Under the pieces are notes generated by a model, which saw only the letters and a list, made by a program, of their open reading frames with translations, was not told the origin of the DNA and made no database searches. Positions 9,866 through 64,000 of a DNA stretch of 64,000 bases are shown piece by piece; position 1 is the first letter of the stretch; every line of letters begins with the position of its first letter. Source of the DNA: Candidatus Bathyarchaeia archaeon (GTDB lineage Archaea; Thermoproteota; Bathyarchaeia; 40CM-2-53-6); the NCBI GenBank assembly GCA_050013255.1, contig JBEKFP010000001.1:192001-256000 (forward strand), in the 5' to 3' direction. The position numbers and the translations under genes are program-made.

Positions 9866-10010
9866 GAAAATTATCTACTTGACCGTTTGTTTTGCAACCG
9901 CTCATTTAAGACGACTGCAGCGGTATTAAGAACGAAAACGAGATCCAATCCAACACTTTAGCCTACAGTTTGCTGGTACCTCCCGACTTGGAACGCAGAG
10001 AATTGCCATG

Positions 10011-11218: not shown

Positions 11219-13006
11219 ATGTCTTACCTTAAAAATAAAAGAAATATCGCGCTTGCAGTGCTAGTGCTAGCAATACTAGCGGGCTCATACCTGTACATAG
11301 CGTCAGGACCAGCACCATCAACGACAGGAGGAATGTCTACAGAGAATAGTCAACAACTCGAGTTCCAGAAGACTCTCACCTATGTCCAGTTTAGGGACCC
11401 GAACGTCTTGGGCTTTGCTTTGGCGCCGCTACCTGCCAATAGGATGGTCATCAAAGAAACATACGAGACCCTGGTAAGATACGAGGGTGATAGTCTTGAT
11501 TTCAAACCCGACTTGGCAACATCATGGGAGATGTCACCAGATGGCAGAGTGTACACGTTCCACCTACGGCAAGGCGTCAAGTTCTACCCGAGCGGTGACC
11601 CTTTCAATGCACAAGCAGTGAAGGCCAGCCTTGACTACGGCTTCACGGGTCCTGTTACATCGGTCTATAATTTCGGAGGCAAGAATTTGGTACAATACAA
11701 TAGAACTGAGATTATGGACGATTATACCGTCAGAGTATACATGAACCAACCGCTCGCGTGGTTCATGCGAATAATGGCATACGCCTCAGTCAGCGCAATT
11801 CAAAACCCGAATTTCATCGCGGCGCATGGCGGATGGCCGACCTCGGTAACCACTATCGATTCATATCTGATAGACCATCAAGACACAACGGCTGCGTACA
11901 TTGTTGACGAGTTTAAGCCAGGTGATCATGTGACATTGAAGCGAAACCCCACCTACTGGATGGGATGGAATGGGACCCTTGCTAACCGCCCGGAAAGAGT
12001 TGTAATACGGGTTATTCAGGAGCCGGCCACAAGAATGTTGCTGTTAGGACGAATGGATGCTGATATGGCCTTCATCGATACTCAATATCTGCCCGAATTG
12101 AAGAATCGCATACAGAGTGAGAACCTCCCGTTAGTCATCGATGAGTCTCCCGGTCTTACGCAAGTCAACATAGTCTTCGACCAAAAGAACGCTCCTACAA
12201 ACGATGTGCACATCAGGAAGATGCTTGACTATTCCTTCGACTACGACTCGTACATAGCGAATGTACTACACGGCTTCGGCAATCGTCTCTACAGCTTCGT
12301 GCCACAAGGAACATGGGGCTATCAACCAAATGTCCCTCACTATGACTTTGACTTAACAAAGGCTAAAGCAGAACTTGACTTGGCCGCGCCCGAAAACCAA
12401 GCCATGGTGAAGAACCAGATCAAAGTAACCTACACGCCAGGATATGGGGTTGGCAAGGAAGGCTATCTCATGTGGAAGACGGACTTGGCGAAAATAGGTG
12501 TAAACCTGGTTCTCGACGAAATATCGTACCCCGCGTATGACACCGTCGTACAGCGAGGCGGAGTGCCCATTCTTGATCGAAAATGGTCTCCGGACTTCCC
12601 CGACCCTGCAACATACTACGTCATCTTGGGATACGACTTTTATGTCGCTCCAGCTTTCGGAACTACTCCCCAATCAATCGTCGATCTGCTGTACAAAGCA
12701 GCACTGGAAACCAATCAGGATCAACGCCTTCAGATGTATGCACAAGTGGAACAATGGGCCTACGACACAGCCCCATACGTCAAGGTAGCCTCCTTAGTTG
12801 GCGGAGACGATTACAATGTTAGAGGCAGTTGGGTAAAAGGCTACACGCACTTCCCGATGTACGACCACAAGCCCTACTTCTACGAGCTATGGAAGGAACT
12901 ACCAACAACGAGCGCGACATCAAGTATCGTGAGAGAAGGACTCCTGCAAATTCCTTCAGTCAACAAGACGCCGCGGCGTCTTGTTTTCCCCTTTTTTTCG
13001 CCCTGA
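11219..13006 (+). CDS. ABC transporter substrate-binding protein, family 5 (Dpp/Opp)
   Basis: N-terminal TM anchor, YETLV, PDLATSWEMSPDGRVYTFHLRQGVKF, WSPDFPDP; ATG 11219 preferred. Confidence 0.9.
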   Translation: MSYLKNKRNIALAVLVLAILAGSYLYIASGPAPSTTGGMSTENSQQLEFQKTLTYVQFRDPNVLGFALAPLPANRMVIKETYETLVRYEGDSLDFKPDLATSWEMSPDGRVYTFHLRQGVKFYPSGDPFNAQAVKASLDYGFTGPVTSVYNFGGKNLVQYNRTEIMDDYTVRVYMNQPLAWFMRIMAYASVSAIQNPNFIAAHGGWPTSVTTIDSYLIDHQDTTAAYIVDEFKPGDHVTLKRNPTYWMGWNGTLANRPERVVIRVIQEPATRMLLLGRMDADMAFIDTQYLPELKNRIQSENLPLVIDESPGLTQVNIVFDQKNAPTNDVHIRKMLDYSFDYDSYIANVLHGFGNRLYSFVPQGTWGYQPNVPHYDFDLTKAKAELDLAAPENQAMVKNQIKVTYTPGYGVGKEGYLMWKTDLAKIGVNLVLDEISYPAYDTVVQRGGVPILDRKWSPDFPDPATYYVILGYDFYVAPAFGTTPQSIVDLLYKAALETNQDQRLQMYAQVEQWAYDTAPYVKVASLVGGDDYNVRGSWVKGYTHFPMYDHKPYFYELWKELPTTSATSSIVREGLLQIPSVNKTPRRLVFPFFSP

Positions 13007-19589: not shown

Positions 19590-19724
<135 letters not shown>

Positions 19725-50013: not shown

Positions 50014-50982
50014 TCAATCTTCAAGCTGTGCCCGCAGCAATGATCGCAGTTCGATAGCCTTCGCATTTGGGTTTAGTGTTCGATCCAACACTATTATTCG
50101 GTTGCGGTCGTAGCGACCATTCGCGAGTCTCCTAAAAATAATTGACTCAGCCTTGCCACGACCAATGTAGGTCCCGGCAGAGTAATGCAGACTAAACCCG
50201 ACAAGGACTATGAGAGCATAATGGTAAGAAGTAGGTGCCCCTGCCCAGAGAACGTTGTAGAAAATTCCTAGCAGACTGACCAGTATGTTGAGACCGATAA
50301 TCGATCCCAATACACCGGTTAGAAGAGTTGAGTGAAATGGTCCTGAATTGATGCCGATAATCTTGAATCGCCTGAAATATGGAAGGGCGATCGAAGGGAC
50401 CAGGCCCGAGATCATGGTGATCACAATCAACCCCGGTGTCAGCCGAAGCGAAAATAGAACACCGCTCGCACGCTGAGGAGTAGCCAAGAAGTTCAATGAA
50501 TGCAGTACCAACCGTAGCACACCGGGCCTTGTACTTGCCGTCCTTGACGGGTCAGCACTGTAGATGTCCCATCCTATGGCAATCGACGTGAAGAACAATA
50601 CTAATGGCAGGTAGACTAAGTGAGATTTCGCGATGAGGGCCTTTCCGAGGTGCAAGAATTTTTCATCCTTAGGTCTGATCACCTGCTTCGTCTTAGTGAG
50701 CCTCGCAATCAATCCAGCTATGTTCAACGAGCACATGCCTCCGAGGAGTATGATTGATCCATAACCCAGGCCTACGACCAGAAGCCCTACTATTGACGTA
50801 AAGACTGCGACTGCAAATGGATCGAGACCAACATGGGTAAGCTGGGGGATTGAGAACGTTGAAACCGCAGCGACAGAATACGCAACGAATCCTAGGATCA
50901 GCGGTCCGGCCGCATCGATAACCGCGCCACGTTCGGTGAATTTCCTCATTCCACCAGGATCTCTGACCATCCTTAACCCCAT
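50014..50982 (-). CDS. hypothetical multi-pass membrane protein
   Basis: About 6 hydrophobic segments. Confidence 0.65.
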   Translation of the reverse strand: MGLRMVRDPGGMRKFTERGAVIDAAGPLILGFVAYSVAAVSTFSIPQLTHVGLDPFAVAVFTSIVGLLVVGLGYGSIILLGGMCSLNIAGLIARLTKTKQVIRPKDEKFLHLGKALIAKSHLVYLPLVLFFTSIAIGWDIYSADPSRTASTRPGVLRLVLHSLNFLATPQRASGVLFSLRLTPGLIVITMISGLVPSIALPYFRRFKIIGINSGPFHSTLLTGVLGSIIGLNILVSLLGIFYNVLWAGAPTSYHYALIVLVGFSLHYSAGTYIGRGKAESIIFRRLANGRYDRNRIIVLDRTLNPNAKAIELRSLLRAQLED

Positions 50983-51044: not shown

Positions 51045-51096
51045 GCTATCAATTCAATCAATTGGCAGAGATTCTATAAGGAGGGGAGCAACTGCT
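51045..51096 (+). repeat. ~52-bp direct repeat, copy A
   Basis: gctatcaattcaatcaattggcagagattctataaggaggggagcaactgct; 3 substitutions and 1 indel versus 62675-62727. Confidence 0.85.
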
Positions 51097-51179
51097 GATA
51101 TTTGTTACTGGGGAAAACCCATTCGACGGTTTCTTACAGCCCTACCCGTCCGACATCAACTTTACAGGGCCTCACAAGG

Positions 51180-51779
51180 TCAGAACACTCGGGTAATAGG
51201 CTTGAATGCGGGGACCGGCCGCGTCCTCGTCGCGAACATGGCCAACGCGATGCCCCAAGCACGGTCATCATGCGTCCCATCTGGGTGGCTGAATTGAATT
51301 TGACCGGCCTTGGTGAGCTGGAATCGTTCGATGTTCAACTCGTTGGCTAACTCAAGTTGGTAGGGGATCAGGAATCGGTTCTGCTGCATCATCATCTTGA
51401 GGTAGTTCATCACGTCCTGTTTGACCGGTGCGGAGAGGACGATGCCTTCCGCGTTATGGAGCGACTTCCTCGCCTCTTCTACGACGCTCTCTCCGACGCC
51501 CGTTTGGTCGATTAGAATTCTATGAACCGTTTGCAACTTCGCCGTGAGGACTCGAACGAAGCCGACAACGCCCGCCTCACCAGTGTACTCCGTTCCTAGC
51601 GGGAAGACCTTGAGGCCCACTAGGCGGAAGGTGTCCCCGTCTTTTCGGACGAGGGCTAGGACGCTGTAGTCCTGTTTCTTGCCGAGGTCGAGGCCGGCCC
51701 AGTAGTCAGCGCGGGAGGTCTGCTGCAAGTTCCGTCGCCCAGAAGCTTCGCAATTCTCCGCCGAACTCTCGGATTTCAA
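51180..51779 (-). CDS. terminase large subunit, C-terminal nuclease domain (out of frame with the ATPase half)
   Basis: AGLDLG, IDQTGVG, HDDRAW acidic triad. Confidence 0.8.
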   Translation of the reverse strand: MKSESSAENCEASGRRNLQQTSRADYWAGLDLGKKQDYSVLALVRKDGDTFRLVGLKVFPLGTEYTGEAGVVGFVRVLTAKLQTVHRILIDQTGVGESVVEEARKSLHNAEGIVLSAPVKQDVMNYLKMMMQQNRFLIPYQLELANELNIERFQLTKAGQIQFSHPDGTHDDRAWGIALAMFATRTRPVPAFKPITRVF

Positions 51780-52653
51780 GCTCCGCGTCGGTGCATTCCG
51801 TGATTAGCGAGGTGGGGAGCCAGCAATCGTCGTCCTCGCTCCACTCCGCCTCCATCTCACGCCGCCAACGCCAAGGATCGTTCGCCAACTGCTTCCGTAT
51901 CTTCTCCAGGATACCCTTCTTCAGGGGGCCGTTCGGTTCAAGCGCCTGTTCCCACGTGACGTGGTCGCGGCTGAAATCTTCAAACTCCTTATCCTTACAG
52001 ATCCTGTAGAAAACGTGGTCGCGGGACCAGGGTGTCGAGTTGGCTATGAAGAACCCGTTCGTCGTGCCCAACGTGAAAAGAATCGCATCGTAGAGCTCCT
52101 CGTCATCCCGCACGAAGTTGAACTCGGTCGCAAGTACGCCATGCAGTGTCGGGCCCCGTATCGTGTCGGGGTTGCAAGGATAGGCTTCAATGTTAGAACC
52201 GTTAGTTAGCGACACTTTCGTTTTGAGCGGTTTCCGACCGACTAGGATTTCGCGGTAAGGGACACTCCTAGGTAGACGCTGAATGAACGCGTTGATCTTT
52301 CGGATTACGAGTTTGCTTTGGCGAAAGCTTGGACCCACAACTCCTAGTTGGACGCCGTCGTTTTTGACTGCGTACCAGAGCAATTTGCTAGACGCCGAGT
52401 GGTCTTTTCCACTCTGGCGACACCATAGCTGCGCAATGAAATGGGCCGGGTCGTTGAGGAACTTGGCTTGGTAGTTGGTCGGTTCGAAGCCTAGGGCTTC
52501 TTTGCAGAAGGCTACGGGGCCTTTCCCGGCGAATTCCTTGAGCCGTTGGAAGGCGCCTAGGCTTCCCGCTTCAGCTTCCCGCTTGCTTCTGAGCTTCCTT
52601 TGTTCCTCTCTGGCTTGCTGCAATCTCCGCTCTGAATTGCTCATTCGTCTCAC
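51706..52653 (-). CDS. terminase large subunit, N-terminal ATPase domain
   Basis: PTNYQ adenine motif, CRQSGKD Walker A, TIRG, VLATEFN Walker B variant, NSTP coupling motif, REMEAEW. Confidence 0.85.
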   Translation of the reverse strand: MRRMSNSERRLQQAREEQRKLRSKREAEAGSLGAFQRLKEFAGKGPVAFCKEALGFEPTNYQAKFLNDPAHFIAQLWCRQSGKDHSASSKLLWYAVKNDGVQLGVVGPSFRQSKLVIRKINAFIQRLPRSVPYREILVGRKPLKTKVSLTNGSNIEAYPCNPDTIRGPTLHGVLATEFNFVRDDEELYDAILFTLGTTNGFFIANSTPWSRDHVFYRICKDKEFEDFSRDHVTWEQALEPNGPLKKGILEKIRKQLANDPWRWRREMEAEWSEDDDCWLPTSLITECTDAELEIREFGGELRSFWATELAADLPR

Positions 52654-53203
52654 GAACCTCGTCTAGGAGAACTTGGATGTCGCGGCGGTCGTAACCCTGC
52701 AGAAGCGCCATGTCGGTTCGGACAGTAGTGTTAGCCAAGCGCATCGCTTCCATACGCGCCTTCGCATTCCTAGCTGCCTCCTCACTCTCGCAGAGCTTGA
52801 TAACCGTCTTCAGAATGGCGTCCACAGTGTCGTGAAGATCCAACCGACCCTGCTGTGTATCTTTGCTGGCCTTCAACGGTTGTTTCGTTGGACCAGGCGC
52901 TTCGACCGCTGGCAGTGTCAGGGCAATAGCTTGGAGTTGCAACGTGCGGACGAGGGTGTCTAGGTGGCGGAGGAGGGCTGGGGTGCCTTCCTTTGCTTCA
53001 ACGGACTGTTTCACGTATTCGACTAGCACGAACTTTGCCAACTCGTTGAGGGAAACCCCCCTCGACATGGCCCGGGCTTGTAAACCGCTTCGTATGAGGG
53101 GATCGAGGCGCAAAATGAGGCGAGGGTTACCTTCGTTTGGCACCGTTTGGCACCACCCCTCGAGGGGTGGATCCACCCTCTTAATTGCGAACGGTAGTAG
53201 CAA
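52571..53203 (-). CDS. RHH plus helical protein, putative terminase small subunit (start probably GTG 53143)
   Basis: RLILRLDP...RGVSLNELAKFVL RHH pattern; overlaps the TerL start. Confidence 0.5.
   Translation of the reverse strand: MLLPFAIKRVDPPLEGWCQTVPNEGNPRLILRLDPLIRSGLQARAMSRGVSLNELAKFVLVEYVKQSVEAKEGTPALLRHLDTLVRTLQLQAIALTLPAVEAPGPTKQPLKASKDTQQGRLDLHDTVDAILKTVIKLCESEEAARNAKARMEAMRLANTTVRTDMALLQGYDRRDIQVLLDEVRETNEQFRAEIAASQRGTKEAQKQAGS
53134..53178. repeat. tandem repeat plus two overlapping perfect palindromes
   Basis: (cgtttggcac)x2; CCACCCCTCGAGGGGTGG at 53153-53170; GGGTGGATCCACCC at 53165-53178. Confidence 0.8.
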
Positions 53204-53335
53204 CGTTACAGGTTAGAACATGTAATAGGACATCATAGCTGGCAACAGAGAGTTATGAATTGAGCGAGGGGCCTCTAATCTTCGTTCGATGTGACTAAGT
53301 TGATTTATCTGCACGCCGAAGAAAGAGTCAAGAAT

Positions 53336-53704
53336 CTATGGTCGTCGAGTGACCCTTGAACGTCGAAGCGGCAACAGTGTCTTGAGATCTTCTCCATAGG
53401 GCTGGAGACCCGCGGATTTCCTGTATCCATTCATTAACGCTCTCATCTTTGGGATCATATGAGGAACAAGGCTTACGTGCGCGGAAGTGTCCCGGCCCGT
53501 TCTCTCGCCCTCAACATGCAACGAGGAAGGATTCTCGGTCCTGAGTAATTCATACGCTTCTCGGATCAAGGATCGGTGCTTTGGGGGGTAGCCATGAGGG
53601 AGTAGTTCCATCGGTAGGTGCTTGCCCCCGATGCGATGGTCTTCGAAGAGCTTGTTTATGATGTACCCTTTTGCGTGATTGAGCGTCCCTAGTTTGAACA
53701 CCAT
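53336..53704 (-). CDS. hypothetical winged-helix-like protein (IGGKH motif)
   Basis: IINKLFEDHRIGGKHLP...HGYP...HVSL pattern. Confidence 0.6.
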   Translation of the reverse strand: MVFKLGTLNHAKGYIINKLFEDHRIGGKHLPMELLPHGYPPKHRSLIREAYELLRTENPSSLHVEGERTGRDTSAHVSLVPHMIPKMRALMNGYRKSAGLQPYGEDLKTLLPLRRSRVTRRP

Positions 53705-53766
53705 TGGAATTTATTCCACTATCTTTGGAATTAGCCGCAACGATTATAAAGGGTGACGAAAGATGA

Positions 53767-53787
53767 TTATCATCATGATGACGATAA
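53767..53787. promoter_or_regulatory. 21-bp palindrome in the divergent promoter
   Basis: TTATCATCAT-G-ATGACGATAA, arms match at 9/10. Confidence 0.55.
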
Positions 53788-53805
53788 CGTACAGGAGGTA
53801 CACAA

Positions 53806-54105
53806 TTGAAGAGAATTAGTGAAGGTCCTCTTGGAATAGTGTTTGGTGGCCCTGTGGCCCGGGTTCTCGACCAGGCTAGGATTGTAGGCAACATGGAGCA
53901 GACGATTCCTATGCTGGCTCAGTCAACCGGCTTGACATTTAAGACTGTCCAGAAAGCGGTCCTGAGACTGAATCAAATCGGATTGGTGAAGCGCTCAAGA
54001 AAGATCGCAAACGCCCAGACCTACAGATTCGATGTGGAGAACGAGCTGCATGAGCTGCTGGTTTGGACTGAACAGCTTCCCGTCAAACGACTTCGACACC
54101 GATAG
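53806..54105 (+). CDS. winged-helix transcriptional regulator
   Basis: VFGGPVARVLD...LAQSTGLTFKTVQKAVLRLNQIGLVKRSRKIANAQTYRF. Confidence 0.75.
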   Translation: MKRISEGPLGIVFGGPVARVLDQARIVGNMEQTIPMLAQSTGLTFKTVQKAVLRLNQIGLVKRSRKIANAQTYRFDVENELHELLVWTEQLPVKRLRHR

Positions 54106-54260
54106 GACGACGACTGATGCGAGCGCAATGCGCCAGCTAGGCCACGAACCAAGCCAAAACATCTCGAAAACCGCGCCATAGACCAGGCTAGACTAGGTTC
54201 TAATCCCGTATCCAAAGTATGTTTCGGCAGCACGTCCAGTTTTGCCTTCCGCTATGTTCG

Positions 54261-54346
54261 AACGCAGGTGCACTTCTGCGAGAAAACAGGGTTTTTCCGC
54301 CAGACCGTTTAACCCCCCCCAATAGAACACTAACAATACCGCAACC
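54261..54346 (-). pseudogene. relic 1 of unannotated gene X
   Basis: About 85% identical to 56503-56585; minus strand reads VAVLLVFYWGGLNGLAEKPCFLAEVHLR. Confidence 0.6.
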
Positions 54347-54470
54347 AGTATTCATTGAGCGGTTGTCCTAAGCAACTGCTTGCCTCTGACGTTTCCTTCT
54401 TGGAAACACGAACATCCGGCGGCATGCTTAATTGAAGACTCCGCTGGAGTTTGAAATCAGTGATTGACCT

Positions 54471-54749
54471 TTGCCAAATCAGGTTCACTGCGCTCATATC
54501 CTCGTGAAGACGGAGAAGGAGGCACAGATGGTCCTGGGTCGGCTGAGTAAGGGAGAGAAGTTCTCCAATATTGCGAAAGAGGTCTCCCGCGACCCGGGTT
54601 CGGGCAAACGTGGAGGAGACCTCGGCTGGTTCACGCGCGGAAAGATGGTGAAGGAGTTCGAGCAGACCGCGTTTGCGCTCCAGAAAGGACAGACCTCACC
54701 CATCGTGAAAACACCATTTGGATACCACATCATTCGCAGACTAGAATAG
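54471..54749 (+). CDS. parvulin-type peptidyl-prolyl isomerase
   Basis: CAHILV, GGDLGWF, MVKEFE, TPFGYHII. Confidence 0.93.
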   Translation: MPNQVHCAHILVKTEKEAQMVLGRLSKGEKFSNIAKEVSRDPGSGKRGGDLGWFTRGKMVKEFEQTAFALQKGQTSPIVKTPFGYHIIRRLE

Positions 54750-54862
54750 CTCTCACGCCGTTAGGGTTGTTTAGAGCGTTCACCTAGAAGCATGGCGTCT
54801 CATTGGTTCTCTGTCATATTCCCCTTAGGAGGTTATGTTAATGAGTAACCTCTGTATCATTA

Positions 54863-55654
54863 ATGATACAGGCGTTACTTGTGCCAAGAACCCTTGATGC
54901 AGTAAAGGCAGAAAAAGTTGCAAGTGTGGTCAAAAAACTCGGCCGCAGCGCTTCATTTCGAAACATATGGAAGGAAGTTGCGCGTGCAGGGATTTTGACG
55001 CATAACACAACGTTGCGGACGTATCTAGACCTGTTGGTGAAGAGCGACGTACTGAGTGTGCGAAAACAGGACGTAGGATCAGTATACTCAAAGGAGACAT
55101 ACTTTGTCAAGTCGGAAAAACCAAAGGTGTGCGTTGGCCTCGTTATCCTGCAGAAGCACGGCCTCAACTGGGATGTACCCGAAACGGACATCCGCACCAT
55201 TCTCACTGATTTCATCGGCCTAGCACGTTCCAAACCTTTCGAACATGGTTTGATGGCGTCCTTAGAGGACTGCCTGGTGAATGAAGCCTATGCGGATGCA
55301 AAAAAGCAGACGGGAACATTTTCTCTTGTTGCTGCGATGATCTCTACAAGGAAATTGGACCTTCCTTATTTCTTACAGCGGGCTGACGAAAATCACCTAG
55401 GAAGGGCCTTTCGGCTGCTCTTTAGCCGAATACTAGAAACAACATCCTCGAATGTCACCAGCGTCGATGCACCTGCGTTCTTAGCGGTTCGCGAGCGATT
55501 TCTTGGCATCACCAGACAATATTCGCGCTCTGGGTTTTGGAAGCTCGTCGATGGTGAGAAAGGGGTTGGAGTGATTGGACTCAATCTCGTAGAGGATTTG
55601 AGCGAAAGCGACTTGATCCTCACCGCGGCAAAACAGCTTGGAGTAGTGGGTTAA
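54863..55654 (+). CDS. wHTH protein, putative AbiEi-like antitoxin
   Basis: N-terminal wHTH (TLRTYLDLLVKSDVL); stop overlaps the nucleotidyltransferase start. Confidence 0.55.
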   Translation: MIQALLVPRTLDAVKAEKVASVVKKLGRSASFRNIWKEVARAGILTHNTTLRTYLDLLVKSDVLSVRKQDVGSVYSKETYFVKSEKPKVCVGLVILQKHGLNWDVPETDIRTILTDFIGLARSKPFEHGLMASLEDCLVNEAYADAKKQTGTFSLVAAMISTRKLDLPYFLQRADENHLGRAFRLLFSRILETTSSNVTSVDAPAFLAVRERFLGITRQYSRSGFWKLVDGEKGVGVIGLNLVEDLSESDLILTAAKQLGVVG

Positions 55655-56340
55655 TGAAAAGGCCTAAAGACATACGCGTTGCACCCATAGAGTGGGTCGA
55701 AATTCTCAAGGTTGCTTATCCGTTTCTTCATGAAAAGGCGGGCGATCTAGTAATCTTCGGATCCCAAGCTCTATCCATTCACATGAAGAACCCGCTGCGA
55801 AGCAAAGATCTAGACATGCTCTCTGCCCAAGTCGGCCCTCTTCAAATGGAGCAGTTGTCAACAAAACTCTCGGATCTTACGAACGTGGAATTGAGGTCAA
55901 TTTCAGTTCAAAGTAGAATGTTTGGCCCAAGGAAGATGACTACATATGCGATTGAGCTTCGGATCAAGGAAAGGCCCTTCTTCGTAGAGGTGTTCGATCG
56001 CATATTGGATGGACGGGCGCCCTCTACCCTGCAGCCCTATGTTGAGCCCGTAAAGCGTTGGAAGTTGGAGGTCTGGGCTCCCGACAGAGAAGCGACCGTC
56101 GCACTTCGTATGGCGTTCAGACAGCCCGAGGGAATAAGTAGGTTCAATGCAACACGCCTAAACGCTTTCATTGACGAGAACCGACGTTCGATACGATTTA
56201 AGCGGGTAAGGTCCATTCTCAAGAACTGGAATATTGAGGACTGGGTAGAGAAGAATCTCATTGATCTGTACCGTAGAAATAGGTTGCGAATAATCGGGGA
56301 CAGCAAAATCATTCCGGGTATTGAGAGGAAACTCGGGTGA
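55654..56340 (+). CDS. Pol-beta-type nucleotidyltransferase, putative AbiEii-like toxin
   Basis: VIFGSQAL...RSKDLD and downstream VEVF. Confidence 0.65.
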   Translation: MKRPKDIRVAPIEWVEILKVAYPFLHEKAGDLVIFGSQALSIHMKNPLRSKDLDMLSAQVGPLQMEQLSTKLSDLTNVELRSISVQSRMFGPRKMTTYAIELRIKERPFFVEVFDRILDGRAPSTLQPYVEPVKRWKLEVWAPDREATVALRMAFRQPEGISRFNATRLNAFIDENRRSIRFKRVRSILKNWNIEDWVEKNLIDLYRRNRLRIIGDSKIIPGIERKLG

Positions 56341-56485
56341 CATCAAAGGGAGGTGGGCGCATTATTGTTCGATACCGTTGAAGAAAGAACAATCGCACTG
56401 ACTGTGATTATGGGTTAGAGTAGGCAATAGGAAATCCGGTCCCGTGAGGGCGGCAGAAACAAGCATTCGACGAGGCTTCGGGTAT

Positions 56486-56653
56486 TTATGTGGTTGTGCG
56501 GAAACGCAGGTGCACTTCCGCTAGAAAACGGGCCTTTTCCGCCAGACCGTTCAACTCCCCATAGAACCATAACAATACCACAACCGCACGACTAACCAAC
56601 AAACCCGAATCCTTAGCCACACGCTTTTTCTTCTGTGTGAGTCTGTTGTTCAC
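56486..56653 (-). pseudogene. relic 2 of unannotated gene X (55-aa open frame)
   Basis: MNNRLTQKKKRVAKDSGLLVSRAVVVLLWFYGELNGLAEKARFLAEVHLRFRTTT. Confidence 0.55.
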
Positions 56654-56763
56654 CAATAAAGCGAGGCATGGACTAGCCTTGAACCGATCTCAGCTCTGGA
56701 AATCTGGCGTTGTAGCTGCGATCTTCCTGACTACACAATGAAATTTAAACGCAGACGCTCATC

Positions 56764-57834
56764 ATGAATGATGATGCTGAAAGGATGCTAACTCCACTTG
56801 GGGTCAACACTATGGATGAAAGTGAAGTGAAGATTGTGATTGGACAGGCTGTGGGAAGAGCCTACAACTTAGACCGCGCTGAAAAGAGTATTCCTATGCT
56901 TCAACGCCTATTCGAAGAGCCTCAGAGAACCGAATTGGAACGGGCGAGTAGTGAACTGCTTGCTTCGGATAACTTTGATGAGCATACTGTAGCGTTCATA
57001 CTTCAGGCCTCCCTGCAAACCGACCTTCCGAATCCAGCTCCTATCGATTGGCGTGATCTAGCATTGGATATCCGTGAATTGGAAAACACAGTCGCGGATT
57101 ACATGTATCGCCTGGAACGGGAGATGGAAAACAAAGATAAAGTGACTGAATCAGATAAGCCAGCGATGGCCGAAATGCACGATGCCCTGCGTGAATGGGC
57201 CAACTCTCTCGGCAGCGTTGTGTCTCATATGCGCGAGGAGAACTGGATTGAGGCGAAAGTTGAGGTTGACAAAGCATTCTATGCTTCGCAGTCACAAGCA
57301 ATCGACGCATTGAAAACATTCTACGAGAATCCCATTCTAGCGGAAGTTATTGATAGATTTCGTGACAAGACAAAACAATTCCACGAGACAATACTTCGTT
57401 ACCCATCACGAATGATTATTCCCAAAGATCGAGTGAAAACTATCCTTGATGTTCAAGCCGTGTACCTGCGTCTACAGCAACTCTACTTCGAGGATCGAAA
57501 CCGCGAAGCGAACCAAGTTATCGGTTACCCTATAGAGAAACTCGGAGATGCTATTGATTTCCTACTTCAAACTAGCAAGCGTTTAGAGACCGCGAATTAT
57601 GAGATTGGGCTCGGGGTAGGCAATCTAAGAAGGGGGCTACCCAAGATTAACGACCCTGCTCTTAGGAGAGTGTTAGTCGATTTGGCTGATAGGTTGGATA
57701 CAATCTTCTCAAGCCTGCCTGCAGAACCTTGGCCAATGAAGGATTATGGCCATCCTGATGTTGAATCGCGATTTGACTCAGATCCGTATGGCCCGACATA
57801 CAACCATGGAGAACAAACCAAAGACGAAACCTAG
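56764..57834 (+). CDS. hypothetical all-helical protein
   Basis: 356-aa acidic, helical ORF with an upstream TTTAAA box. Confidence 0.7.
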   Translation: MNDDAERMLTPLGVNTMDESEVKIVIGQAVGRAYNLDRAEKSIPMLQRLFEEPQRTELERASSELLASDNFDEHTVAFILQASLQTDLPNPAPIDWRDLALDIRELENTVADYMYRLEREMENKDKVTESDKPAMAEMHDALREWANSLGSVVSHMREENWIEAKVEVDKAFYASQSQAIDALKTFYENPILAEVIDRFRDKTKQFHETILRYPSRMIIPKDRVKTILDVQAVYLRLQQLYFEDRNREANQVIGYPIEKLGDAIDFLLQTSKRLETANYEIGLGVGNLRRGLPKINDPALRRVLVDLADRLDTIFSSLPAEPWPMKDYGHPDVESRFDSDPYGPTYNHGEQTKDET

Positions 57835-58054
57835 GTCTAGGGAGGGGATGCGGTTGGCTAATGTTCGCTTTCATCTTCAGCACTGTGGTCATGAATGAAA
57901 GTCGAAGAAGGTTTTTCCTAGAAGCACGAGATGCCCAGATTGCAAATCACGCGAGGTCATTAAGCGGCTTCGGTAGAAAGCACTGTTGCTCTCGCAAAAT
58001 TCGAGATGAAGATTGGCTTTCTGAAAAAAGACTGTTACTGTATGGTGAGACAAG

Positions 58055-61000
58055 TTGCTAGATTGGTCGAAGCTGAAACCATATCACAACAATAAGCATC
58101 TGAGCTTTGAGGAACTCTGTTATCAGACAGCCAAATGTCTTTTTCAGGATCATTTCACTCGCATTGATGATACCGGAGGAGGGGACGGTGTAGAGTTTTA
58201 CAGGGTTCTACCTGAAGGTGATGAATGGGGATGGCAAGCAAAGTTCTACTATCCTCAAGCTCGTCTAAACCTGAGCAATCGCAAAGCTTCCATCGAAGAA
58301 TCCCTAATTTCCTCGTGTAAGAAACATCCACGTCTCAAGAAGTGGATCTTGTGTACGCCGACAAACCTGACTCCTGAAGAGAGCACGTGGTTCAGCCAAG
58401 AACTCAAGAAGAAGATTCCGACCAATATGACGGTCGAACTCGAACATTGGGGTGACGGCGAGTTCAATGACTGGACAAGACATCCGCATTTTGGCGGAAT
58501 TAGGCACTATTTCTTCGGCGAGTTGGAGTTCACAATGGATTGGTTCAAGAAACGCTTCGAAGAGATCTCTCCGATCTACAAAGATAAGTTCAATCCAGCG
58601 TTGCACACACCGACTATTTTCGATAGCCATATTCAGAATACCCTCTGTGAGTTAACTCTTACACAGGAATTGCATGAAATAGTGGAATATATTCGCACTA
58701 AAATCCAAGAGTATGTGAAGACGGTTGACGATCTGAAAAAACCCTTACCTATGCACATTGACTGGGGAACAGTCAAGAGTGTCCTAATCGCTGCTCTCGA
58801 ACCAAATGCGAGTGTTGCCAAAGATGCCTTGGCTAGGCTCAAGAAGGTCTGTGAATTCTTGGACCAGGGTTTGATTGACGAGATAAGGTCCTGGAATCTA
58901 AATGAAACTGAGGATTTTCTAAAGGTGATTGTTCAATCGAGCGAGTCGTGTGAGAAGGCGTGTTCTGGGTTTGACGAAAATGCCCTTACGTACACAGGAG
59001 AGGAAAGAGAAAGAGTCAGAGCTCTTGGCGAAGCATCTCAGATGGTGCGTCAACCGATCAGACTTGCAGCCGTACTCGCCGACAGTTTTTCTGATTTTAC
59101 TCGTGTTCTAAGAGCTGTAACCCGTTCGAACCTGAACATACTCGGAGGTCCAGGAGTTGGCAAAACACACCTTGTTAGTCACGTTGTCGATGAAAGAATA
59201 AGAAGAGAACTGCCGGCTATCTTGGTGCCCGGCAGTAGGTTCATGAGTCAACAACCGATTTCGCAGCAACTACTTCAAATGCTCGACATCCCGGCAAATT
59301 ACAGTTGGGACGATTTCCTTTCTGCTCTAGATTGCTCTGCTCAGGCATACGGAACCAGAGTTCCACTCGTCATAGACGGTCTAAATGAGGCGATAGCTAG
59401 CGGGACTCTGTCAGAGATATGGAAACGCGAATTACCGGTCCTGATCAACCAAATCAAGCAACTCAAGAATATCGTGCTCATAACAACCTGTCGAACGAGT
59501 TATGAGAAAGGCGTATGGCCTGATGATGCTCTTCCAAACAGGCTTTACTTGCGCGGATGGTCTCCAGAAAATCTCGAAGCAGCAATTCACAAGTACTTCG
59601 ATTGGTACAAAATAAGTGGCGACCTGACAACTTCATCTCTTCGTCAGTTTCAGAATCCCATATACCTGAAGATCTTCTGTGAGGCTAACAACGCTGAACG
59701 TCGACAGGAGAAAGAGGTCTATGTCGGAGAAGAGACGCTTTTTGAGGTTTTCAAGGTTTGGTTGAACCAGTGCAGCCAAAGCATATGTGACAGGCTCAAC
59801 TTGCACACCAGCGTCTCAGTGGCTCAAGATTCCATCAGAAAGATCGCCCTTCGAATCTGGGAAAAGCATGTTAGAGAACTCCCCATTGCGGAATTAGCCG
59901 AGATCGTAGACAATACACCTCTGAAGGAGCTGCAGTGGAACCAGTCCTGGACAAAAGCAGTCCTCGACGAGGGGTTACTGGTGTGTCGTGATCTACGTGA
60001 CCAGGGGGAAGTCGCATACTTCACGTATGATTTACTTGGCGGATACGTGATCGCACACAGTCTTGTCGAGAAAGAGAAAAACAGCTTGGACAGTTTCCTG
60101 AAATCTAATGAGGTGACGAACAAACTCTTCTCGGACGACTACAGAAATCTGCATCCCCTGTATGAAGACATTTCGCGATCTCTTGCTGTAGTCTTGCCAG
60201 TAACAACCGGTCGATTTCTGCATCAGGTGAGGGAAGATGAGAAACCATTCAACTTCTCAATCGCGGCTATTTTCGAACTTCCACCAAGCGTTGTTTCGAA
60301 TGGTTGTGTTGAGCTCATCGCGAAGTTGTTCGATGACGAACGGAACAGGAAATATCTAATCAGTCTGGCGGCGTCTACGATGACACAGACGCAACACCCA
60401 CTTAATGCGGTTTTCTGGTCCAAGCGACTGTTGGAACTTCCGATGGCGGAACGCGACACTTGTTGGACGGAATATGTGCGAGAGAACGAGGAACAGCTCC
60501 AAAGTACTGTGGTCCGGTTCGAAAGACTTTGCATGGATAGAGACGCCTCTTCCCCCGTTGCTAAAGAAAGATGTCATCTGATGGCCCAACAGCTAATGTG
60601 GACGTTAACTTCAACGGCGCGAACGCTCCGGGATAAGACGACTCGAGCGCTGTACTGGTATGGACGATGGATGCCTGACCGTTTCTTTGACCTGGTGCTA
60701 TCATCTCTAGAAGTCAATGATCCGTACATCTCTGAGAGAATGCTCGCTGCAACCTATGGTGTGGCTATGGCTCGACAGATCGAGTTTACAGACAATACTT
60801 TCACTACGGTAACATTGCCCAGATATGGGAAAGAGTTGTATGAGGTAATGTTCGGAGAGAAGGCGCCTCATAGAACAACCCACATTCTCATGCGAGACTA
60901 TGCTCGACGCACAATTGAGCTGGCGTTGATTCATCATCCGGACTTGCTAAGCTCAGAACAGCAACAAAGGATTAGACCGCCGTTCTCAGAAGAGGGGATC

Positions 61001-62278
61001 AGAAAGTGGGGAGAAAGAGAAGACAAGAATGACCGAGAATACAGAGACGGAAATGCCCCAATTCATATGGATTTTGGCAATTACACGATGGGGCGTCTGG
61101 TCAAGGACAGAAGTAACTACGACTTTGACAATACTGAGTACAAGACCGTACGCGGAAACATATTTTGGCGAATCTACGATCTTGGATACTCGCTTGAGAG
61201 ATTTGGGGAAGTCGACAGACTCATTAATCGAATGAATTGGGGATACGGTAGAGGCGAGAACGGCGGGAAAATAGATCGCTACGGAAAGAAATACTCATGG
61301 ATAGCATTTTTCGAACTTGCCGGATTGAGGCAGGACAGAAAACTCCTACCGGACGATTATGGTTTTCCACGAATTTCTAGTTGCGATATCGATCCGAGCT
61401 TTCCTAAAGATATCCAACAATATCAAGTTCCGCTAGACGACTTCTTGGAAATCACGTCCATTTCATCTCAGGAATGGATAGAGAAAACAACCGCGCCTAA
61501 CATAAGCTCCGCCCTCATAATCCCGAAGATTCTCGGAAATGATGGTCCATGGGTTTTGCTAGACGGTTTTATCGTGCAAGAGGATTTGGAGGCAAATCGA
61601 GACTGCTTTTTGCACCCGCGATGTTTTCTGATTCAGAATTCCGATTTAGAGGAATTTGTGACTCTGCTCAAGAGAAACTCCCAAGCTTGGATTCCAGACA
61701 TACCAAAAGACTACTACACATATGCAGGCGAAATTCCATGGTGCGACACATTTCCCAACAATGGTCAAGATGAGATGGAACTCACGGTCAAGACAAAGAA
61801 AGAAGTTCGCCCAATGGCGTCGCGTGTAGAATCAGGATTTGTAATCAAAGAACAGGAAGTTGAAGTCCCAAGCGAAGTTCGGAAATTTGCTGTGTTTCTT
61901 CCAGTTAGATACAATTGCTATGAATCTTACCACAGCGAAGTCAATCCCAGTCGTTCCGTACTAGTTCCTGCAAAGGAGATCTCTCAAATCTTTAAGGTAT
62001 GTTCTCAGGCCCAAACTTTCGATATGCATGAGAAAAAAGGAAAAAAAGCGTCGATCACCGTCAGTTGGGGTAAGGAATATCACGATTCCCAGCTAGTCTT
62101 TTTGCGCCAAGATCTGCTGGACGGATATCTGGGAGGATGGAGTATGTCACTAGTATGGGTAATTAGTGGCGAAAGACGACTTTGGTCAGAAGAAAAAGAT
62201 ACTATTGGACTTGGAAGGTCGATCGAGAAGTATGCCCCATTTTTCCATGTCTTGAGCTACACGCCCAAGAAGACGTGA
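58055..62278 (+). CDS. nuclease-STAND NTPase antiviral protein (AVAST/Avs, Avs2-like sensor)
   Basis: N-terminal FEELC...GDGVE...WGWQAKF nuclease; GGPGVGKT Walker A; VIDGLNE Walker B; C-terminal LRDKTTRAL, NDPYISER, HILMRDYAR, RYGKKYSWIA. Confidence 0.8.
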   Translation: MLDWSKLKPYHNNKHLSFEELCYQTAKCLFQDHFTRIDDTGGGDGVEFYRVLPEGDEWGWQAKFYYPQARLNLSNRKASIEESLISSCKKHPRLKKWILCTPTNLTPEESTWFSQELKKKIPTNMTVELEHWGDGEFNDWTRHPHFGGIRHYFFGELEFTMDWFKKRFEEISPIYKDKFNPALHTPTIFDSHIQNTLCELTLTQELHEIVEYIRTKIQEYVKTVDDLKKPLPMHIDWGTVKSVLIAALEPNASVAKDALARLKKVCEFLDQGLIDEIRSWNLNETEDFLKVIVQSSESCEKACSGFDENALTYTGEERERVRALGEASQMVRQPIRLAAVLADSFSDFTRVLRAVTRSNLNILGGPGVGKTHLVSHVVDERIRRELPAILVPGSRFMSQQPISQQLLQMLDIPANYSWDDFLSALDCSAQAYGTRVPLVIDGLNEAIASGTLSEIWKRELPVLINQIKQLKNIVLITTCRTSYEKGVWPDDALPNRLYLRGWSPENLEAAIHKYFDWYKISGDLTTSSLRQFQNPIYLKIFCEANNAERRQEKEVYVGEETLFEVFKVWLNQCSQSICDRLNLHTSVSVAQDSIRKIALRIWEKHVRELPIAELAEIVDNTPLKELQWNQSWTKAVLDEGLLVCRDLRDQGEVAYFTYDLLGGYVIAHSLVEKEKNSLDSFLKSNEVTNKLFSDDYRNLHPLYEDISRSLAVVLPVTTGRFLHQVREDEKPFNFSIAAIFELPPSVVSNGCVELIAKLFDDERNRKYLISLAASTMTQTQHPLNAVFWSKRLLELPMAERDTCWTEYVRENEEQLQSTVVRFERLCMDRDASSPVAKERCHLMAQQLMWTLTSTARTLRDKTTRALYWYGRWMPDRFFDLVLSSLEVNDPYISERMLAATYGVAMARQIEFTDNTFTTVTLPRYGKELYEVMFGEKAPHRTTHILMRDYARRTIELALIHHPDLLSSEQQQRIRPPFSEEGIRKWGEREDKNDREYRDGNAPIHMDFGNYTMGRLVKDRSNYDFDNTEYKTVRGNIFWRIYDLGYSLERFGEVDRLINRMNWGYGRGENGGKIDRYGKKYSWIAFFELAGLRQDRKLLPDDYGFPRISSCDIDPSFPKDIQQYQVPLDDFLEITSISSQEWIEKTTAPNISSALIIPKILGNDGPWVLLDGFIVQEDLEANRDCFLHPRCFLIQNSDLEEFVTLLKRNSQAWIPDIPKDYYTYAGEIPWCDTFPNNGQDEMELTVKTKKEVRPMASRVESGFVIKEQEVEVPSEVRKFAVFLPVRYNCYESYHSEVNPSRSVLVPAKEISQIFKVCSQAQTFDMHEKKGKKASITVSWGKEYHDSQLVFLRQDLLDGYLGGWSMSLVWVISGERRLWSEEKDTIGLGRSIEKYAPFFHVLSYTPKKT

Positions 62279-62590
62279 TTGAATTCCAAGGGACACTGGG
62301 TTCTGCTAGGAATACGCGAAATATTCCTTGGACAGAACCTATGATGCCTGCACGTGGACTTCCACGTCTAAACCATCGATTACACGTGGCCATCAGAAAA
62401 TGAGCCTTATGTAATATCCCCAGTCAGCTGGTGCGGGCAATGGAAATTGAACTTAGCCCATCAGTCCTACTGACAGGAGAAGTTTAGTCTAAGATATGCG
62501 CTATGTAAGTTCATGAGCCATTTGTCTGATTAGAGGAGCTCGCGAGAAGGCGAACATCCTGTGTTCGCGGAGCCGAGCACAACAGCTATG

Positions 62591-62615
62591 GAGGGTTCGA
62601 ATCCCACCCATCGCA
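62591..62615 (+). repeat. degenerate tRNA 3'-end relic
   Basis: GAGGG-TTCGAAT-CCCAC-CCATCGC-A. Confidence 0.5.
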
Positions 62616-62674
62616 AGAACGATGCGTCCCCCCTTGTAGGGGGGCGGTGCTAGAAAAATAGGAACCACGTAGGC

Positions 62675-62727
62675 GCTATCAATTCAATCAGTTGGCAGAG
62701 ATTCTATAAGGAAGGGGAGCGACCGCT
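62675..62727 (+). repeat. ~52-bp direct repeat, copy B (promoter region of the DZR gene)
   Basis: Matches 51045-51096. Confidence 0.85.
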
Positions 62728-62735
62728 ATCATTGA

Positions 62736-62930
62736 ATGGTCATGCAAGCTGGTCCGCAAAGGCCGGGCATTGTGTTTTGCAGCAACTGTGGAATGAACAA
62801 TCCGACGGGGAACAAGTACTGTTACGGTTGCGGTAAGTCCCTTTTCAGCATAACCTGTTCCTACTGCAGTACCATCAATCCCCAGTACGCCCACTTCTGT
62901 GGGTCGTGTGGTCGAGCCCTAGCCCGCTAG
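62736..62930 (+). CDS. double zinc ribbon protein
   Basis: Four CxxC pairs: CSNC, CYGC, CSYC, CGSC. Confidence 0.85.
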   Translation: MVMQAGPQRPGIVFCSNCGMNNPTGNKYCYGCGKSLFSITCSYCSTINPQYAHFCGSCGRALAR

Positions 62931-62935
62931 ATTGA

Positions 62936-63070
62936 TCAAGCGCCCCCTTTCAACCGGTCTCGATAATGTTCCCGAAACTTCCTTACCGACGAACCCGAAT
63001 CCTCAGCCACACGCTCTAGAGCATTGAAATCGGGCCCAATGGCTTCGGAGTAGCCTCGGCGAGTGTTCAA
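62936..63070 (-). pseudogene. relic 3 of gene X (internally deleted, 44 aa)
   Basis: ...ALERVAEDSGSSVRKFREHYRDRLKGGA*; 62985-63015 matches 56595-56625 and 62930-62977 matches 63953-64000. Confidence 0.55.
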
Positions 63071-63110
63071 CTCCCCACACCAATAATCCTGAACGAGCAA
63101 CGCTTATAGG

Positions 63111-63132
63111 GCGTAAACAAGATCGTTTACGC
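63111..63132. promoter_or_regulatory. TA operator palindrome
   Basis: GCGTAAAC-AAGATC-GTTTACGC between a TTATA box and the antitoxin ATG. Confidence 0.7.
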
Positions 63133-63135
63133 GTC

Positions 63136-63363
63136 ATGACAACAGTTCAGGTTCAGGTCAGGGTGCCGAGGAAAGTGGTCCAAGAAATAGATAGGTGGAT
63201 AGCAGAAGGTCGGTTTGCTAACAGAAGCGAGGCCATCAAGACGGTCCTAACACTTTACGAGGAAAGAGAGAACACGAGAAAGTTCTACCAGACCATCCTC
63301 AAGCGCAGTGAGCAAGCGAAGAAGAAACCTGACTCACTAATTCCCCTCGAAGAGATTTCTTGA
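63136..63363 (+). CDS. RHH (CopG/Arc/MetJ) antitoxin
   Basis: VQVQVRVP...GRFANRSEAIK; 4-nt overlap with the toxin. Confidence 0.85.
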   Translation: MTTVQVQVRVPRKVVQEIDRWIAEGRFANRSEAIKTVLTLYEERENTRKFYQTILKRSEQAKKKPDSLIPLEEIS

Positions 63364-63629
63364 CCTATCAGGTCCTCCTTCACCCCAAATCAGCCAAGTT
63401 CCTCTCGGGATTGGCGGAACCTTTGCGAACGAGAATCAAAGACGCGTTGAGAGAATTGCGGGATTCTCCTGAAACGAAGGGTGAACGCCTATCTCCCTCT
63501 GCGTTCTGGCGAATCAGAGTCGGCGACTACAGAGGGATCTATGAGATAGATAGAAAAGACAAGAGAGTAATTGTCCTGCACATTGGACACAGAGGCAGGG
63601 TATACGATGACTTCAGTCGTCTCCTCTGA
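63360..63629 (+). CDS. RelE/ParE family toxin
   Basis: YQVLLHPKSAKFL...WRIRVGDYRGIYEID...IGHRGRVY. Confidence 0.9.
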   Translation: MTYQVLLHPKSAKFLSGLAEPLRTRIKDALRELRDSPETKGERLSPSAFWRIRVGDYRGIYEIDRKDKRVIVLHIGHRGRVYDDFSRLL

Positions 63630-63675
63630 TCTGTTCGGAAGTTCGGGAGTGCGATAAGATGAGCTCAGATGGTTC

Positions 63676-63696
63676 GTGGGTTCGAATCCCAACCGG
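63676..63696 (+). repeat. degenerate tRNA T-arm relic
   Basis: GTGGG-TTCGAAT-CCCAA-CCGG. Confidence 0.4.
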
Positions 63697-63746
63697 AAAC
63701 TCTCACCAGAACAGTATCGAATCTCGACTTCCCATGAAAGTGAAAT

Positions 63747-63989
63747 GTGGCCAGGCGAGTTGAGTTGAAGAAGAAGCGGTTCTTCGTTGCAATCGATTTC
63801 TCGAGGTACAAGGGCAGATACGTTGCCGTGGTCGGAAAGAGAGTCGTTGCAAGCGGAACCAACGCGAAACAAGTGTGGTTAGAGGCCAAAAGGAAGAATC
63901 CTAAAGCTCGACCCGAGCTTCACAAGGTCCCGAAGGACGAGACGCTCGTGTTGATTGATCAATTGCCTACTTTCAACCGTTCTCGGTAA
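63747..63989 (+). CDS. DUF5678-like small protein
   Basis: YKGRYVAVVGKRVVASG...AKRKNP...KVP. Confidence 0.75.
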   Translation: MARRVELKKKRFFVAIDFSRYKGRYVAVVGKRVVASGTNAKQVWLEAKRKNPKARPELHKVPKDETLVLIDQLPTFNRSR

Positions 63990-64000
63990 TGTTCCCGAAA
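63959..64000 (-). other. 3' end of copy 4 of gene X (continues beyond the window)
   Basis: FREHYRERLKVGN*; 63953-64000 is 42/48 identical to 62930-62977. Confidence 0.55.

Follow-up and report, generated by a model that had tools for sequence, protein, structure and literature searches.

Introduction

Head-tailed viruses (Caudoviricetes) are known from Bathyarchaeia, and the families Fuxiviridae and Kunpengviridae have been proposed for them (ISME Commun 2024, PMC10848311); a split terminase and capsid-less cassettes are not mentioned in that study. Bacterial phage satellites, among them phage-inducible chromosomal islands (PICIs), capsid-forming PICIs (cf-PICIs), P4-like elements and PICI-like elements (PLEs), encode an integrase and regulators as well as a replication module; PICIs as a rule have the small terminase only (Nucleic Acids Res 2023, PMC10085698). 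The satellites of haloarchaea and nanohaloarchaea (bioRxiv 10.1101/2025.02.15.638363) and a putative Asgard satellite (bioRxiv 10.64898/2026.08.12.739948) are replicons of plasmid origin, which contain helicase-primase genes and lack a terminase. Here, we describe a terminase cassette in a 64,000-nt stretch of a Candidatus Bathyarchaeia archaeon genome (the window). Judged from its sequence and those of its relatives, the cassette very probably began as the packaging module of a head-tailed virus of Bathyarchaeia and is now a free-standing, capsid-less unit of ~2.1–2.3 kb. Its lineage appears to have lasted and branched out in the absence of virion genes, with purifying selection acting on all three proteins.

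The window represents positions 192001–256000 of contig C1 of G000, a 2.46-Mb genome in three contigs. G-labels denote the other genomes and L-labels individual loci or contigs. The genus-level comparison set comprised 23 genomes; two of the comparison genomes, G013 and G004, were 87 and 75% complete, respectively. An earlier note, made from the letters of the window, had proposed a satellite-like or domesticated terminase element with a minimal backbone. What held of this proposal was a discrete, selected and capsid-less unit that is incongruent with its hosts, whereas its genes proved to be virus-derived, with their source in complete proviruses.

A split large terminase of viral origin

Three overlapping minus-strand ORFs were located within 51180–53203:
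51180–51779, minus strand: TerL-C, the RNase H-like nuclease half of the large terminase, 199 aa, Pfam Terminase_6C 37.1 bits
51706–52653, minus strand: TerL-N, the ATPase half of the large terminase, 315 aa, Pfam Terminase_6N 31.1 bits
52571–53203, minus strand: partner protein, a 210-aa ORF overlapping TerL-N, with a likely GTG start at 53143 (giving 52571–53143) and no family

Both halves exceeded the Pfam cut-offs (22 bits for Terminase_6N and 22.6 bits for Terminase_6C) and matched PHROG terminase families. The terminase is therefore genuine, but it is not the one gene that the earlier note had described: TerL-N and TerL-C lie in different frames with an overlap of ~70 nt, and the two domains are not on a single polypeptide. 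The overlapping ORF upstream of TerL-N, which had also been reported, was present as the partner.

Terminase relatives were encoded on 332 IMG/VR contigs and 49 genome contigs, nearly all of them from Bathyarchaeia. The same split point, after the motif LPTSLIT.CTD, was found in G013, G004, G014, G021, G039 and about 20 IMG/VR and genome contigs, and relatives at ≤57% identity had both terminase parts in one frame. An assembly error or a fresh pseudogene was ruled out as the source of the frameshift, because the split recurred across many independent assemblies and diverged relatives. Judged by this distribution, the split is the usual state in one clade of terminases from Bathyarchaeia tailed viruses and was inherited from working viruses, not produced by decay. 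In the provirus of G021, an extra ORF of ~103 aa with no known family was observed between TerL-N and TerL-C (L028:10826–11137).

Three types of junction were recognized among the split terminases. In G039 and L055, the two ORFs overlapped as ATGA, with the ATG of the second sharing nucleotides with the stop of the first, as is classic for coupled genes. A conserved TTG start was found in L032, L038, L113, and L039. In the subgroup of the window, the TerL-N stop (UGA or UAA) was located exactly 13 nt ahead of the nuclease GxDxGK codon, and the second frame was +1. A stop at this spacing was found in the window (51700–51712) and in L110, L111, L112, L030, L031, L034, L037, L272, and L276. The overlap region of this subgroup was conserved in the first frame alone, and omitting the U of the TerL-N stop would join both halves. 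A +1 shift that fuses the halves at this stop is thus possible in the window subgroup. The search for a stimulatory RNA structure 3′ of the stop yielded a consensus fold that was weak (−8.9 kcal/mol) and showed little covariation.

Walker motifs A and B of the window TerL-N were GKD and ATE (codons at 52300–52420), which departed from the canonical GK[ST] and hhhhDE. GKD was paired with xTE in nine of nine sequences (including the loci L030–L033, L038, and L110–L113), some of them on contigs with full head modules, and all remaining members paired GK[ST] with xDE. The pattern suggests that, in a virus subclade, the two Mg-binding residues have changed places with each other. A degenerate ATPase was dismissed, since the pair co-varies and is present in contigs with full head modules. 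TerL-C kept the acidic motifs GLDLGKKQD and HPDGTHDD, aligned with those of intact paralogues, and terminated in FKPITRVF. The C-terminal tail FKPITRxF was conserved in both cassette families described below, the split and the unsplit, and may be the portal-docking end.

Viruses of the split clade shared the gene order adenine methylase, small ORFs, partner, TerL-N, TerL-C, portal, protease-like protein, scaffold and HK97-type major capsid protein. The place of the partner directly upstream of TerL was kept across the virus family. The gene after TerL-C encoded a 415–550-aa protein with sub-threshold portal matches in both Pfam and PHROGs, and further downstream lay a protease-like protein, a scaffold- or cement-like protein and a ~330-aa protein with HK97 capsid matches. 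The additional conserved genes of these modules are presumably tail genes. The closest viral TerL-N, on an IMG/VR contig with a portal gene, was 85% identical to that of the window, and a provirus of G014, a species of the same genus, encoded one with 78% identity. Portal and capsid profiles matched in only two of the 23 genus genomes, G014 and G021, both of which contain complete proviruses. The close homologues in complete virus modules indicated that the cassette is derived from viruses and is not a separate invention. No CRISPR-like matches were detected between virus contigs and G000, apart from the terminase itself and host repeats.

A capsid-less cassette with fixed ends

No relatives of portal or capsid genes were found anywhere in the 2.46 Mb of G000, either by BLAST with the virus gene clusters or with profiles. 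Past window position 64000 there were host genes alone (MsrA, DoxX, CBS, MFS, HpaB, and others), with no portal or capsid gene in the next 12 kb. Contig C1 contained no tyrosine integrase, and all three tyrosine recombinases of G000 were on contigs C2 and C3. The lack of portal, capsid and integrase genes, which the earlier note had reported for the window, thus extends to the whole genome for the virion genes and to contig C1 for the integrase.

The cassette was defined as a 2.06-kb stretch, from 51174/51178 to 53230/53233, at whose ends similarity stopped in G004 and G013. It was 90.6% identical to the copy in G013 and 91.2% identical to that in G004. Ten metagenome contigs carried the cassette together with an upstream 22-mer repeat; all three genes were present on five of the ten, and the rest were cut by the contig end or rearranged. 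No virion-gene relatives were found on these ten contigs, and one copy was located among host genes on a contig of 131 kb. In total, the same ends were observed in ~12 independent contexts. The earlier note had named recurrent capsid-less modules with variable defence cargo as support; the module found here was recurrent and capsid-less, and the variable, repeat-bounded cargo that flanked it differed even between near-identical strains.

The genes of the cassette were under purifying selection. Over many pairs with dS of 0.2–1.1, dN/dS was 0.13–0.23 for the partner, 0.07–0.16 for TerL-N (intact copies) and 0.08–0.22 for TerL-C. The only broken copy was L267, with a stop in TerL-N, which showed that loss does occur.

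The relationships of the cassette did not follow those of the host. Host DNA beside the island was 90–92% identical to G014, 73–86% to G004 and 67–78% to G013. G014 lacked the cassette at the corresponding locus, and the TerL of its provirus was 76% identical. In L272, the host genes were 90.6% identical and the cassette just 83.7%. The flanks of the G013 cassette mapped to other parts of G000. The similarity of the cassette therefore contradicts host relatedness, and it seems to have passed from one species to another as one unit, with its ends unchanged.

These data bear on the proposal that the cassette remains from an integrated tailed virus without having a function, and that the island is a normal integration hotspot. 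The earlier note had taken close homologues in complete proviruses as the sign of such ordinary decay. Homologues of this kind do exist, with TerL-N 78–85% identical in portal/HK97 modules, and so do decaying relatives, namely L267 and L116 (truncated nuclease half and fragmented downstream gene); the island also contains tRNA-like scars and direct repeats. Yet a decaying prophage would not be expected to show identical ends in ~12 contexts, three ORFs intact in nearly all copies with dN/dS of 0.07–0.23 at dS to ~1, identity above that of the host, and the same pattern in a second terminase lineage. Ordinary decay was considered very improbable.

A second proposal is a recombination reservoir, in which viruses repeatedly pick up the cassette and deposit it again by homologous exchange, so that selection acts in the virus phase and chromosomal copies are short-lived. 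Mosaic virus genomes typically show module-sized units with sharp ends, as seen here. The cassette was itself a mosaic, with a partner closest to one virus group (42–44% identity) and a TerL closest to another (78–85%), and the dS values against L272 differed (0.26 for the partner vs. 1.0 for TerL). However, none of the 129 loci was a virus contig with the cassette 22-mer or with a partner >45% identical. Most cassettes were 92–98% identical to one another (86% for L272), whereas the closest viral TerL-N reached 85%. The cassettes thus look like a lineage of their own, and the reservoir seemed quite unlikely.

Partner, gene X, and the 22-mer repeat

The partner consisted of an N-terminal segment resembling a ribbon-helix-helix (RHH) domain and a long helical body, according to the alignment and a structure model (pLDDT 73). 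Its profile match to HicB/RHH was weak, and it is like a small terminase (TerS) by position only. Three further features lay upstream of TerL:
53137–53178, minus strand: core of a dispersed repeat, with the 22-mer GGGTGGTGCCAAACGGTGCCAA at 53137–53158 and the 14-bp palindrome GGGTGGATCCACCC at 53165–53178
54261–54346: second C-terminal relic of gene X, inside a 3.2-kb insertion
56413–56625, minus strand: C-terminal relic of gene X, at the upstream end of the cassette unit

Gene X encodes a small RHH protein of the CopG-like type, with a weak RHH_5 match. It was intact at L272:7573–7860, directly adjoined the partner as a relic in G013 and G004, and was linked to the cassette in these two genomes and in five metagenome loci (L268, L269, L272, L275, and L276). 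The earlier note had postulated gene X as a real gene linked to TerL, and this was borne out. A structured RNA was also considered for the gene-X element. None was detected (one input sequence was on the wrong strand), and the element is the relic of a protein gene.

The 22-mer overlapped the likely GTG start codon of the partner. G000 contained 16 copies, 15 of them perfectly conserved (other sites were, for example, C2:692415, C1:1228610, and C2:730280). It was present in seven of the 23 genus genomes (25 copies in G013); the remaining 16 lacked it, as did the complete viruses. Five copies included the first 100–150 nt of a partner-like gene, and three adjoined tRNA-like 3′ ends, one of which was called a tRNA-Met by ARAGORN. 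No recurrent neighbour gene was found beside the 16 copies in G000.

A second, unsplit terminase cassette

Two more terminase loci were found in G000, A at C1:1298353–1299642 and B at C1:398464–399816, both unsplit. Their TerL proteins were 78% identical to each other and each ~35% identical to the TerL of the window. The gene order in both was gene U (~130–140 aa, weak RHH signals), partner (~148 aa) and TerL, with cellular genes on both sides:
C1:1297500–1299660 (L009:8473–10658): unit A, between a PIN/Nramp region and unknown ORFs
C1:398450–400840 (L010:9447–11838): unit B, between a MarR/TrmB-type regulator and an S15 peptidase/peptide ABC transporter

The trio of gene U, partner, and TerL was present in at least five other species, where the flanks were unrelated and no virion genes were nearby. 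The cassettes were intact in seven of seven copies, and the dN/dS of TerL was 0.11–0.23. The B-type unit measured 2.39 kb and had identical ends in three contexts, starting with ACTCAAYTCA and ending 10–20 nt past the TerL stop. The nearest IMG/VR relatives of the unsplit cassette showed only 40–43% identity. In such relatives (L164, L171, L172, and L173), the gene clusters c3, c14, and c17, which follow TerL in related viruses, were located nearby. Cluster c3, the gene after unsplit terminases, was not used as a portal marker, because its N-terminal part weakly matched several host ATPase-like ORFs.

The two families met in one locus. In L275 (Ga0208039_1000009, positions 7900–11850), a complete B-type cassette lay inverted inside a split-type cassette and replaced its middle; its TerL was 89% identical in amino acids to copy B of G000. 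Three tandem relics of gene X, the 22-mer and the 5′ end of the partner were observed nearby. Just downstream of TerL B, a 101-aa ORF (L010:9240–9545) was 60% identical to the C-terminal 63 residues of a 228-aa cargo ORF of the window (55654–56340). This likeness indicated that the same kind of cargo adjoins two different terminase cassettes.

Patchwork structure of the island

The region from 51045 to ~64009 is a patchwork of repeat-bounded insertions, in which an Avs2 unit, a ParDE-DUF5678 unit and a 3.2-kb unit were distinguished. Its features besides the cassette and gene X are as follows:
51045–51096 and 62675–62727: 53-bp direct repeat, copies 92% identical, bracketing the 11.6-kb terminase-to-Avs2 segment 51097–62674
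53207–53230 and 56413–56436: ~24-bp direct repeat flanking the 3.2-kb insertion
53231–56412: 3.2-kb insertion separating the partner from the gene-X relic, absent in G013 and G004
53336–53894, minus strand: unknown ORF in the 3.2-kb insertion
53806–54105, plus strand: winged helix-turn-helix (wHTH) ORF in the 3.2-kb insertion
54179–54195, minus strand: 17-nt piece like a tRNA 5′ half (blastn-short against G000 tRNAs)
54471–54749, plus strand: parvulin, confirmed by family profile search
54863–55654 and 55654–56340, plus strand: ORF pair without family assignment, in the 3.2-kb insertion
56764–57834, plus strand: 356-aa ORF upstream of Avs2, no family match
58055–62278, plus strand: Avs2-type antiviral STAND NTPase, 1407 aa, PADLOC Avs2 PDLC02164, E 2.6e-179
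62591–62610, plus strand: tRNA T-arm-like relic (blastn-short against G000 tRNAs)
62736–62930, plus strand: small protein with a plausible double zinc ribbon (Cys pattern, weak NCBIfam matches)
62930–62986: duplicate of the msrA 3′ end, a copy of 63953–64009 at 88% identity; the pair brackets the ParDE-DUF5678 unit
63136–63363, plus strand: ParD-like RHH antitoxin (Pfam RHH_1/ParD_antitoxin)
63360–63629, plus strand: ParE toxin (Pfam ParE_toxin), overlapping the ParD ORF by 4 nt
63674–63691, plus strand: second tRNA T-arm-like relic (blastn-short against G000 tRNAs)
63747–63989, plus strand: DUF5678 protein, Pfam E 3.2e-11

Most of the cargo was as the earlier note had named it. Parvulin and DUF5678 were confirmed by profiles, and the Avs-like STAND protein matched the Avs2 models in full length, including PADLOC PDLC02162 over residues 2–1382 (its AAA_22/NACHT matches were weak). 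The toxin-antitoxin pair called RelBE-like was real, with profiles giving ParD/ParE, and the Cys pattern made the zinc ribbon plausible, although its NCBIfam matches were weak. Neither ORF of the supposed AbiE-like pair matched Pfam, PADLOC, or NCBIfam, and that name was dropped. The repeated relics attributed to one backbone gene turned out to be several different duplicated pieces, well beyond chance (gene X, the msrA 3′ end, and the 53-bp and ~24-bp repeats). As for relics of tRNA 3′ ends, short T-loop-like stretches of 13–18 nt do occur, but one piece resembled a 5′ half, and no tRNA genes or fragments were reported by ARAGORN or Rfam in the island.

The right copy of the 53-bp repeat formed the promoter/5′ region of the zinc-ribbon gene, and G004 also had both copies. 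The direct repeats of the island were not tied to any recombinase. The near-identical strain L266 (Ga0187850_10008839) was 97% identical over the stretch shared with 51920–54755. It lacked the 6.4-kb segment 56626–62981, which contains the 356-aa ORF, Avs2, and the zinc-ribbon gene, and different DNA replaced 54756–56004. This indicated cargo turnover at the strain level. Avs2 was absent in L266, G004, and G013. In G004 and L272, inserts were found exactly at the TerL-C 3′ end, with 34–51-bp duplications of that end. Given such inserts, other units seem to insert preferentially at either end of the cassette.

Just outside the island, a multi-pass membrane protein gene with no family (50014–50982) was 95% identical to its G004 counterpart, compared with ~86% for the neighbouring host genes, and with respect to the conserved flank in G014 it had the opposite orientation. 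This gene may have been swapped along with the island. An island-free site was not found in the relatives; this gene was kept, but its neighbours differed in every genome examined. Farther away in the window, a short dispersed repeat of ~50 nt (19590–19640) had many copies at 89–96% identity in G004, G013, G014, and G018.

Possible mechanism

As the working mode of the cassette, we tentatively favour a helper-dependent hijack of packaging. The expressed cassette would be a selfish, helper-dependent unit, and a related infecting virus would supply the procapsids. The RHH DNA-binding proteins and the terminase of the cassette would start packaging in situ, on the chromosome at the cassette or close to it. 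Capsids of the helper would then carry the cassette and its neighbours out of the cell, and recombination would bring them into new genomes. Candidate helpers within the genus are the complete proviruses of G014 and G021. Such a hijack would account for the selection on an active ATPase and nuclease, the C-terminal TerL tail conserved in both cassette families, the missing integrase and replication genes, and the movement of cargo lying nearby. Taken jointly, the proposed identity of the cassette and this mechanism have slightly less than an even chance of being correct. A wider version is possible but doubtful: two independent terminase lineages of Bathyarchaeia viruses would each have become a minimal mobile unit of 2.1–2.4 kb (one or two RHH proteins plus TerL), spreading with defence cargo by in-place packaging into helper capsids, like a built-in origin of lateral transduction, with the halves in the window perhaps joined by the +1 shift.

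Several observations weigh against the packaging hijack. No integrase, excisionase, replication gene or pac site was identified, and no target-site duplication or terminal inverted repeat was found at the unit ends. Foldseek against the PDB returned generic helical bundles alone for the partner (best E 0.09) and not a TerS fold, and the partner was only 26–44% identical to the virus partners; its cooperation with a helper portal is thus a supposition. The nuclease ORF of the window subgroup had no positionally conserved start codon. Some of the changed contexts could have arisen from insertions at both ends of the cassette, with the cassette itself staying in place. Judged from the virus genes, the cassette certainly originated as a remnant, and a remnant needs no function of its own.

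The sharp ends of the unit, the absence of an integrase from the contig and the insertion of one cassette inside another (L275) could also point to self-mobilization, in which the terminase nuclease/ATPase and the RHH proteins would excise and insert the cassette in the manner of a transposase. The RNase H-like fold of the TerL nuclease is shared with DDE transposases. Against this stand the missing terminal inverted repeats and target-site duplications, as well as the low copy number of one or two per family per genome, and to our knowledge there is no precedent for strand transfer by a terminase. Self-mobilization was given the smallest probability and considered highly improbable. A 13-nt inverted pair at the unit ends in G013 was not conserved and was judged to be chance.

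The cassette could instead serve its host as a domesticated antiviral module. The partner and the terminase halves would then disturb the packaging of infecting relatives, through mixed inactive motors or premature cutting of concatemers, or would modulate the neighbouring terminase sensor. Purifying selection despite the capsid-less state and the position among defence genes including Avs2 fit this explanation, and interference with helper packaging is known for some of the bacterial satellites and islands described. However, Avs2 is cargo of the window strain only, no cassette protein matched a defence family in PADLOC, and the catalytic motifs resembled those of working viruses. Horizontal spread with fixed ends also fits a selfish unit better than a host gene. 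An antiviral role was therefore regarded as unlikely.

Comparison with known systems

Bathyarchaeia are an abundant, largely uncultured lineage of sediment and peat with few described viruses. Should the cassette prove to be a packaging unit that depends on a helper, no smaller satellite-like element would be known, and among archaea it would be the first that is based on a terminase. It would also offer a concrete route for gene flow and the shuffling of defence islands in Bathyarchaeia. On a conservative reading, large terminases can function as a pair of gene products, Walker A and Walker B can exchange their Mg-binding residues, and packaging genes alone can persist for a long time in cellular genomes.

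The Bathyarchaeia head-tailed viruses are the source of the genes, with viral TerL-N 78–85% identical and a portal and HK97-type capsid in standard order, whereas the cassette keeps the packaging genes only. The bacterial phage satellites resemble it in being capsid-less or capsid-poor, in carrying packaging components and often in carrying defence cargo. They depend on the virion of a helper, as the cassette may do. The cassette differs in that it is archaeal, lacks an integrase and a replication gene, and has a large terminase. Set beside PICIs, the island has packaging genes of its own (partner and TerL) without virion genes, but no integrase, regulatory switch or replication module was found among the island ORFs. 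The archaeal satellites are likewise small elements with an Arc-like (RHH) regulator, and use of helper capsids has been proposed for them; the cassette, in contrast, is chromosomal and consists of terminase genes only.

Gene transfer agents and domesticated prophages also comprise virus-derived genes under purifying selection in cellular genomes. However, gene transfer agents keep capsid, portal and tail genes, whereas the genome with the cassette has no portal or capsid. Domesticated remnants are usually inherited vertically at one locus, whereas the cassette keeps the same ends across unrelated contexts and is at odds with the host in its relationships. Accretion of integrative and conjugative elements (ICEs) and cis-mobilizable elements (CIMEs) in streptococci, and tycheposons in Prochlorococcus, produce cargo arrays bounded by direct repeats and partial copies of tRNAs or gene ends. 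Those systems have identifiable tyrosine recombinases, whereas contig C1 has none.

The Avs2 of bacteria senses the large terminase (Nat Commun 2024, PMC11564622), and it recognises the ATPase domain of the terminase with ATP bridging to the terminase Mg site (bioRxiv 10.64898/2026.04.30.721860). One may speculate that the GKD/TE swap affects this sensing. The window protein matches the Avs2 models in full length and differs from bacterial Avs2 in being archaeal and in residing together with a host-borne terminase ATPase. A terminase sensor beside a host-borne terminase is a natural test of discrimination between self and non-self.

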